A DNA stretch of 64,000 nucleotides from Eledone cirrhosa (taxonomy: Eukaryota). Shown here piece by piece: positions 26,653 through 26,858 of the stretch. Below the pieces are notes generated by a model. It ran no database searches. It saw only the letters and a program-made list of their open reading frames with translations, and was not told the origin of the DNA. Both the position numbers and the translations under genes were made by a program. The first letter of the stretch is position 1, and every line of letters begins with the position of its first letter. The stretch spans positions 25,544,001-25,608,000 of the forward strand of contig OZ024761.1 of the NCBI GenBank assembly GCA_964016885.1. The letters run 5' to 3'.

Positions 26653-26853
26653 AACGAAGGAAATGTGGTAAGGAACCAGGTGGACCATAACGCACCAAAG
26701 TACTCAATACTTGAGGTAGTAGAGTGGGTAATAGGAACCAGTAAGACCCCGACAGCTGAGCTCAAGCCGTTTCGACGGCTAATTCTGGACTGAATTCAGT
26801 CCAGAATTAGCCGTCGAAACGGCTTGAGCTCAGCTGTCGGGGTCTTACTGGTT

Positions 26854-26858
<5 letters not shown>
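26653..26858. mobile_element. Family A hairpin element: about 80-bp unique arm plus 128-bp perfect palindrome, inside (TA)n
   Basis: 26731-26794 is the exact reverse complement of 26795-26858 (centre tgaa|ttca); (TA)n on both sides. Confidence 0.8.

Follow-up and report, generated by a model that had tools for sequence, protein, structure and literature searches.

Short hairpin insertions in Eledone cirrhosa are likely the ribozyme-bearing terminal repeat of a Penelope-like retrotransposon and may each join two cDNAs of one RNA

The hairpin-forming insertions that we call family A are, to judge from their sequence, likely the ribozyme-bearing terminal repeat of a Penelope-like (PLE) retrotransposon. 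Their layout is already known for PLEs, which makes family A a further member of an established kind; membership in the PLEs rests on non-coding hallmarks, the open reading frame (ORF) not being reached. For the origin of the hairpins, we favour, with a probability of roughly 55%, the idea that each insertion of this hammerhead-bearing repeat consists of two short cDNAs of one RNA that were primed on opposite strands of a (TA)n tract and joined head-to-head. The initial annotation of this DNA had compared the hairpins to the inverted ends of Penelope elements, and the hammerhead motif, the tail and the TA target all agree with this comparison.

In the window (the whole 64-kb stretch of DNA that was analysed), three copies of family A consist of a (TA)n tract, a 78-bp tail, a hairpin and again a (TA)n tract, with an apex that differs from copy to copy. 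The initial annotation had read the same layout and the differing apexes from the letters, and both are borne out by the coordinates and the arm alignments. The three copies are real; four further ones had been missed (25996-26122, 33088-33245, 46483-46527 and 28116-28232), one of them almost without a hairpin, and these copies 4 to 7 were found by a BLAST of the window together with a motif scan. The copies are made up as follows:

26631-26652: copy 1, (TA)n on the tail side
26653-26730, minus strand: copy 1, one-sided tail of 78 bp (the element sense is the minus strand here)
26731-26794, minus strand: copy 1, tailed arm of 64 bp; the apex is the centre of the short natural palindrome AATT
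26795-26858, plus strand: copy 1, tail-less arm of 64 bp, which holds the hammerhead 3' half
26856-26893: copy 1, (TA)n on the tail-less side
36498-36589, minus strand: copy 2 (orientation opposite to copy 1), tail-less arm of 92 bp, preceded by (TA)n at 36472-36499
36590-36603, minus strand: copy 2, loop of 14 nt, by which the tail-less arm reaches stem II of the hammerhead and the final positions of the core (by-eye comparison)
36604-36694, plus strand: copy 2, tailed arm of 91 bp
36695-36772, plus strand: copy 2, tail of 78 bp, followed by (TA)n at 36772-36803
60709-60786, minus strand: copy 3, tail of 78 bp, preceded by (TA)n at 60685-60708
60787-60898: copy 3, hairpin with tailed arm 60787-60837, 10-nt loop 60838-60847 and tail-less arm 60848-60898, followed by (TA)n at 60896-60965
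25996-26122: copy 4, with the tail at 25996-26073; the tailed arm is a stub of some 9-13 bp that begins at 26074, and the inverted tail-less arm (26086-26122) leads into (TA)n at 26120-26135
33088-33245: copy 5, an older, decayed copy whose inverted pair (33088-33111 and 33130-33153, 21/24) encloses an 18-nt loop, with a tail remnant to 33245
46483-46527, plus strand: copy 6, a lone tail-less arm ending at TTCCTAT, followed by (TA)n at 46528-46541
28116-28232: copy 7, a decayed relative with a short inverted pair, 28116-28130 and 28166-28179

The arms of copy 1 are identical without a loop (64/64), and those of copies 2 and 3 agree in 86 of 93 columns (for arms of 92 and 91 bp) and in 49 of 51 positions, respectively. 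Over the stretch common to all six arms of these copies, the two arms of one copy are 96-100% identical (51/51, 50/52 and 49/51) versus 86.5-92.2% for the 12 pairs of arms from different copies, as had been claimed before. The tails of copies 1-4 are 87-91% identical, and the whole insertions measure only 130-280 bp (127-275 bp for copies 1-4). Copy 4 is almost devoid of a hairpin, and its 37-bp tail-less arm has no counterpart in its tailed arm; this arm matches the arm of copy 2 in 29 of 37 columns, a score reached by none of 5,000 shuffles and by none of 12,416 other 40-mers of the window. All five well-preserved tail-less arms of the window (copies 1-4 and 6) end with TTCCTAT followed by (TA)n, which extends to two more copies what had been observed for the first three. 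Chance does not explain the hairpins of family A, because the real window holds 12 hairpins compared to one in total across 20 shuffles of its non-repetitive sequence. The window has 30% G+C and is dense in microsatellites, which swamped the output of an inverted-repeat finder run on the whole of it.

Several lines of evidence point to a PLE. First, TA runs flank copies 1-4 on both sides and copy 6 at its end, in keeping with the AT-rich or (TA)n targets of PLEs. Second, an inverted 5'-truncated copy adjoins the 5' end in copies 1-5 and 7, and opposite-strand joints of this kind occur in reads. Third, the tail is present at one end only (78 bp in copies 1-4). Finally, a type I hammerhead in the terminal repeat is suggested by motif, with the 3' half in the window and the 5' half in a contig consensus. 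Read toward the tail, the arm of copies 1-3 and 5 contains GAAA, a 5-bp stem III with a palindromic loop, and GTC, i.e. the 3' half of a hammerhead. In copy 1, GAAA is located at 26816 and stem III with its palindromic loop at 26819-26837; cleavage is predicted after 26838, and the 3' strand of stem I starts at 26839. The loop of stem III has 9 nt and holds a palindrome. Stem III is 90% paired among ten arms (50 cells) versus 18-72% in slid controls, and its covariation does not beat shuffles (62/500 for the score). The 5' half was recognized by eye, in the right order and spacing, in the consensus of the loose ends of 47 contigs from a set of public short-read contigs (X1) immediately before 36604 (agreement 0.81), and it rests on this one 30-letter consensus. 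It provides the core TTGAAAA, which has the covariant pair U3-A8 in place of the usual C3-G8, together with sequences that would pair over 5 bp in stem I (ACCCC with GGGGT) and over 9 bp in stem II; a further helix of 5 bp lies outside stem I and ends at the tail-less end. At the level of sequence, the family A arm makes up the greater part of a type I hammerhead with a U3-A8 core variant, the hallmark of PLE terminal repeats. The PLE hammerheads described in PMC4209133 combine a U3-A8 core and a long helix II with a palindrome in loop 3, and their motifs occur in opposite-strand pairs at distances of 100-700 bp. In searches of Rfam with the window and two sub-regions, no hammerhead was found and none of the matches listed reached the gathering score. 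Minimum-energy folding of the truncated arms favoured an alternative hairpin and gave no special stability (z 0.03 and -1.49). The stubs, which do not include the catalytic core, are likely inert.

The stubs are too short for the single ORF with PLE-clade reverse transcriptase and GIY-YIG endonuclease. Among the 33 least repetitive of the 204 ORFs listed for the window, none matched Pfam. Two patterns of family A had no match in metagenome contigs, and 18 matches of a 16-letter pattern in viral contigs were taken as probable chance. Likewise, two motifs of family A were not found in the supplement of PMC8557442, a file in which line breaks could hide a match. An ATG at 36737 opens 12 codons up to the tail end (36737-36772) in copies 1 and 2; it is possibly the start of the parent ORF, too short to test, and three of the four most frequent variants in this segment fall on third codon positions. 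PLEs were recently active according to an octopus annotation, as stated in passages of PMC13282606. Family A may already be catalogued in the repeat library of that work or in bioRxiv supplements, which lie outside the search. No paper on family A or on twin priming for the inverted ends of PLEs was found in the literature covered, with subscription papers, Repbase and Dfam outside its scope.

The family can be followed in public short reads; the query, used against four runs, was 36584-36786, which spans the loop of copy 2, one of its arms and its tail. Apart from X1, these are X21, raw RAD reads with the same species label from another study; X6, from another organism; and X18, by our guess an RNA run. 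Matching records numbered 20,020 in X1, 23,212 in X21 and 16 in X6 (record counts, not copy numbers), and X18 returned none, which has no bearing on expression. Family A is abundant in public short-read data. Its tail-less end is fixed, with 1,674 X21 reads and 39 plus 87 X1 contigs leaving the reference via TTCCTAT into (TA)n. Toward the 5' side, the depth in X1 drops steeply from 3.4 million at 36654-36660 to 4,000 at 36598-36604, a fall to which divergence from the reference contributes as well. The reads also bear on the variants that the initial annotation had regarded as private to each copy: Several of them are common alleles of the family, and what stands is that arms within a copy are more alike than copies are to each other. 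At 36680, the X21 minus-strand reads carry A>T, the copy-1 type, in 2,794 of 8,679 cases and A>C, the copy-3 type, in 2,718 of 8,679; C>T at 36670 is present in 1,416 of 9,261.

Head-to-head joints were detected at many places. Among the 15 of 40 joints listed, 12 are opposite-strand joints; two of these merely cross the self-complementary (TA)n, and ten remain. In eight of the ten, the start of one arm falls at 36633-36636, at the end of a predicted RNA stem, and the partner starts anywhere between 36637 and 36733, although the table of joints does not tell whether the long arm is the tail-less one and alignments break easily at the variable positions 36680-36689. Five partner starts are inside the tail and four at 36684-36691, within about ten bases of the tail boundary as in copy 4; joints with a short arm ending at 36684-36733 resemble copy 4 in general. 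Four of the ten joints are present in both X1 and X21, one of them by a single X21 read. The palindromes are thereby confirmed in Illumina reads and short-read contigs for the family, not locus by locus: The loop of copy 2 has zero depth in all four runs. Piles of X21 read ends at 36622, 36628 and 36764 were rejected as restriction cuts, as they coincide with the three AATT sites of the reference. Loose ends at 36682-36686 (122 X1 contigs and 1,157 X21 reads) mark a second subfamily, which differs in the flank of loop III and in the 3' strand of stem I but retains stem III and the palindromic loop.

In the mechanism that we favour, the protein of an autonomous PLE would cut both strands of a (TA)n tract. 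Reverse transcription would start at the two sites known for PLEs: from the distal one the 78-nt tail would be copied, and from the proximal one, which is TTCCTAT at the base of stem I of the ribozyme, the tail-less arm would arise. Both cDNAs would break off within some 10-105 nt, in many cases close to the base of an RNA stem, and their 3' ends would anneal via a short self-complementary word, such as the AATT at the apex of copy 1, and be filled in against each other. Overlapping cDNAs would give a perfect or looped palindrome and non-overlapping ones a plain inversion, and the arms would share their variants through the common source RNA. Two observations led us to this idea: (i) Compared by eye with the upstream consensus, the loop of copy 2 matches in 12 of 14 letters along the tail-less arm versus 5 of 14 along the tailed arm. 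The tail-less arm of copy 2 is therefore the longer one, because the loop matches the element in its direction. Folding back cannot yield a tail-less arm with more element sequence than the tailed arm provides, and copies 2 and 4 therefore do not fit such a scheme. (ii) The returning path of copy 2 passes three other TAT/ATA sites before the one that is used; thus, the fixed end is better explained as a start of reverse transcription that is defined by the element. From the longer tail-less arms of copies 2 and 4 and the fixed end we infer two cDNAs of one RNA, a reading that on balance probably explains the shared variants, the fixed end, the variable apex and the asymmetry in either direction.

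Part of what the initial annotation had proposed for the origin of the palindrome is in line with these data: It is not a fixed inherited terminal inverted repeat, as its apex varies in the window and in the reads, and it was probably made at integration. The proposal of a single tailed cDNA that folds back and stops at a chance TAT match is not supported in this form, given copies 2 and 4 and the fixed end. A modified version has a smaller, though still appreciable, chance of being correct: The source would be the same PLE end, one tailed cDNA would fold back, copy itself up to TTCCTAT and anneal across the (TA)n break, and a one-sided deletion would later have occurred in the copies with the longer tail-less arm. 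One-sided deletion of the centre is a behaviour attributed to palindromes, which passages of PMC7999016 do not state directly. Copies 2 and 4 are more diverged and older than copy 1, and their asymmetry may come from such a later deletion of the hairpin tip. In the youngest copy, copy 1, the palindrome is perfect (64/64), as snap-back predicts, and has a natural AATT at its centre, and the loop of copy 3 reads best along the tailed arm. Moreover, in passages of PMC3846280, self-priming is proposed for the palindromes at inverted PLE junctions, and passages of PMC11331408 report that snap-back 5' junctions occur at low frequency with the R2 protein. However, separate deletions would be needed in copy 2, in copy 4 and in the read joints in which the short arm stops at 36684-36733, and snap-back gives no reason for the constant use of one among several equal TAT/ATA sites, while a PLE has two starts of reverse transcription.

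The (TA)n tracts themselves might be the cause, if they break and are repaired by end joining with templated fold-back synthesis that duplicates the adjoining DNA, the element being a bystander. Seven of the 12 hairpins of the window end at most 15 nt from a TA tract (null mean 1.2; 0 of 2,000 placements), and four of the seven are unrelated to family A, i.e. hairpins of unrelated sequence adjoin (TA)n in four of nine cases outside the family. However, we consider general break repair improbable: It is the sequence of the element, rather than the break, that fixes the outer end; the other hairpins, too, are parts of repeats with fixed ends of their own (10030-10198 with 47216-47349), and two of them carry CTGATGA..GAAA cores, which points to further PLE families. 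Probably, several PLE-like families leave the same footprint in the window.

An inherited palindromic element of the MITE or fold-back type that inserts at TA, its arms kept alike by conversion and its centre trimmed by deletions, would have the TA target and would also show arm identity above copy identity. This reading, slightly less probable again, is largely refuted by the one-sided 78-bp tail in place of a terminal inverted repeat, by the many apexes, by the linear upstream sequence that completes a hammerhead in 47 contigs, and by a depth that falls toward the 5' side as for a truncated retroelement. A fold-back artefact of assembly or library is highly improbable: The copy 2 loop lacks coverage, three apexes are unconfirmed at their own loci and some X21 joints with a single start could be library chimeras, yet copies 2 and 3 have 2-7 differences between their arms, every copy has the same end motif, and tail-less ends and opposite-strand joints occur in raw Illumina reads and short-read contigs of two studies.

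The closest known systems are the endonuclease-containing (EN+) PLEs with hammerhead-bearing pLTRs arranged partly in tandem as pLTR-ORF-pLTR (Penelope/Poseidon, Neptune and Hydra clades), such as Pen2a_Av of Adineta vaga in passages of PMC3846280 and Poseidon_Ac in passages of PMC11167929. They share with family A the head-to-head inverted 5'-truncated copy, the tail at one end, the palindrome at the junction, a hammerhead motif shortly upstream of the end, the AT-rich or (TA)n target, and copies that run past the cleavage site. In contrast, family A insertions are very short, have a tail of 78 bp compared to the published PLE tail of 30-40 bp and a 5-bp stem III, and neither an ORF nor a clade is established for them. 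In the Adineta PLEs, the tail is likewise confined to one end, and the junction with the inverted 5'-truncated copy bears palindromes, for which the passages of PMC3846280 propose self-priming. According to passages of PMC8557442, the same layout of inverted copy and tail is found with (TA)n targeting in Naiad and Hydra PLEs, the latter with canonical hammerheads, and the formation of the inverted ends is named there as an open question. Naiads, which have an N-terminal endonuclease and include Naiad_Ovul and Naiad_Obim, thus share the (TA)n preference, the inverted truncated copy and the tail, but differ in that they are described there as having no canonical hammerhead, a feature of this clade that is absent from family A with its full hammerhead-type motif. 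The purified Poseidon PLE protein cuts and extends both target strands and prefers AT-rich DNA; it is a predicted dimer, uses uncleaved RNA and starts reverse transcription at the two sites that delimit the tail (passages of PMC11167929, in which no explicit twin-priming proposal for the inverted copy was seen). The Cercyon-type hammerheads of Schistosoma mansoni PLEs resemble family A in the U3-A8 core, the long helix II and the close pairs on opposite strands, but are minimal motifs with little helix III, unlike the 5-bp stem III and 9-nt palindromic loop of family A (passages of PMC4209133). Non-LTR retrozymes (passages of bioRxiv 10.64898/2026.07.22.740005) are likewise short, non-coding and PLE-derived with a type I hammerhead; however, they are built of head-to-tail tandem units with complete ribozymes, whereas family A is head-to-head and without a core. 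No such tandem unit is present in the window. The parent of family A may be a retrozyme-like non-autonomous element. MITEs have terminal inverted repeats at both ends and a uniform length, whereas one end of family A is a unique 78-bp tail and its length varies. For L1, twin priming reportedly involves both target strands, which prime reverse transcription on one RNA and give an inversion joined by microhomology. This is similar to what we propose for family A; however, the second primer of L1 anneals internally at varying positions and produces no hairpin, whereas in family A the second start would be fixed 78 nt away and the cDNAs would overlap.

It is tempting to speculate that all PLE inverted repeats and tails are the signature of obligatory twin priming, in which a dimeric enzyme makes two cDNAs 78 nt apart from a single uncleaved RNA, one for each target strand, and that this genome holds thousands of miniature products from several unrelated families; we regard this wider idea as tentative, its chances falling somewhat below even. 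If it is true, each product directly reveals its two stop points and the microhomology at its junction, the divergence of its arms gives a date, and together these would settle how PLE inverted ends form. Family A provides a test bed for this question, as its insertions are very short and very numerous and both junctions lie within one read, and twin priming and snap-back can be told apart by the copies whose tail-less arm is the longer one. The stubs seed palindromes beside TA tracts across the genome. They will likely be mistaken for MITEs or microRNA-like hairpins; their best Rfam matches are miRNA models that score below threshold.

Other repeats of the window deserve mention. A second family at 2290-2684 consists of (TA)n, a unique part of about 150 bp, 105-bp arms with a 19-nt loop, and (TA)n; its arms carry CTGATGA..GAAA inside an imperfect long stem, and a 77% identical copy at 25062-25334 has no hairpin. 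The two members of a third family, at 10030-10202 and 47216-47349, have the same outer end at (TA)n and different apexes, with arms of about 51-55 bp versus about 24 bp with a 16-nt loop. CTGATGA..GAAA is found at 2443-2671 and 28274-28335, in a loose form that matches 29 times in the window and is weak alone. The segment 28232-28343 (TA, a 43-bp unique part, arms of 17-25 bp, a 28-nt loop with CTGATGA..GAAA, and (TA)n) could be a further stub with a hammerhead or else a natural stem I. An unrelated hairpin at 60614-60684 ends in the TA tract where copy 3 starts, and parts of 60038-60684 recur rearranged at 45557-45836. Single hairpins with arms of 15-104 bp are located at 7675-7797, 6736-6798, 21777-21839, 37855-37918, 26950-26993, 45958-46084 and 56757-57024; within the first, 7732-7797 has the layout TA, unique part, hairpin, TA. 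Another dispersed repeat, arranged head-to-head and in tandem with a 194-bp period (3322-3583, 31299-31691 and 31846-31988), presumably resembles an octopod repeat. Finally, a minisatellite at 41285-42113 comprises 17 copies of a 49-bp unit with 92% matches.
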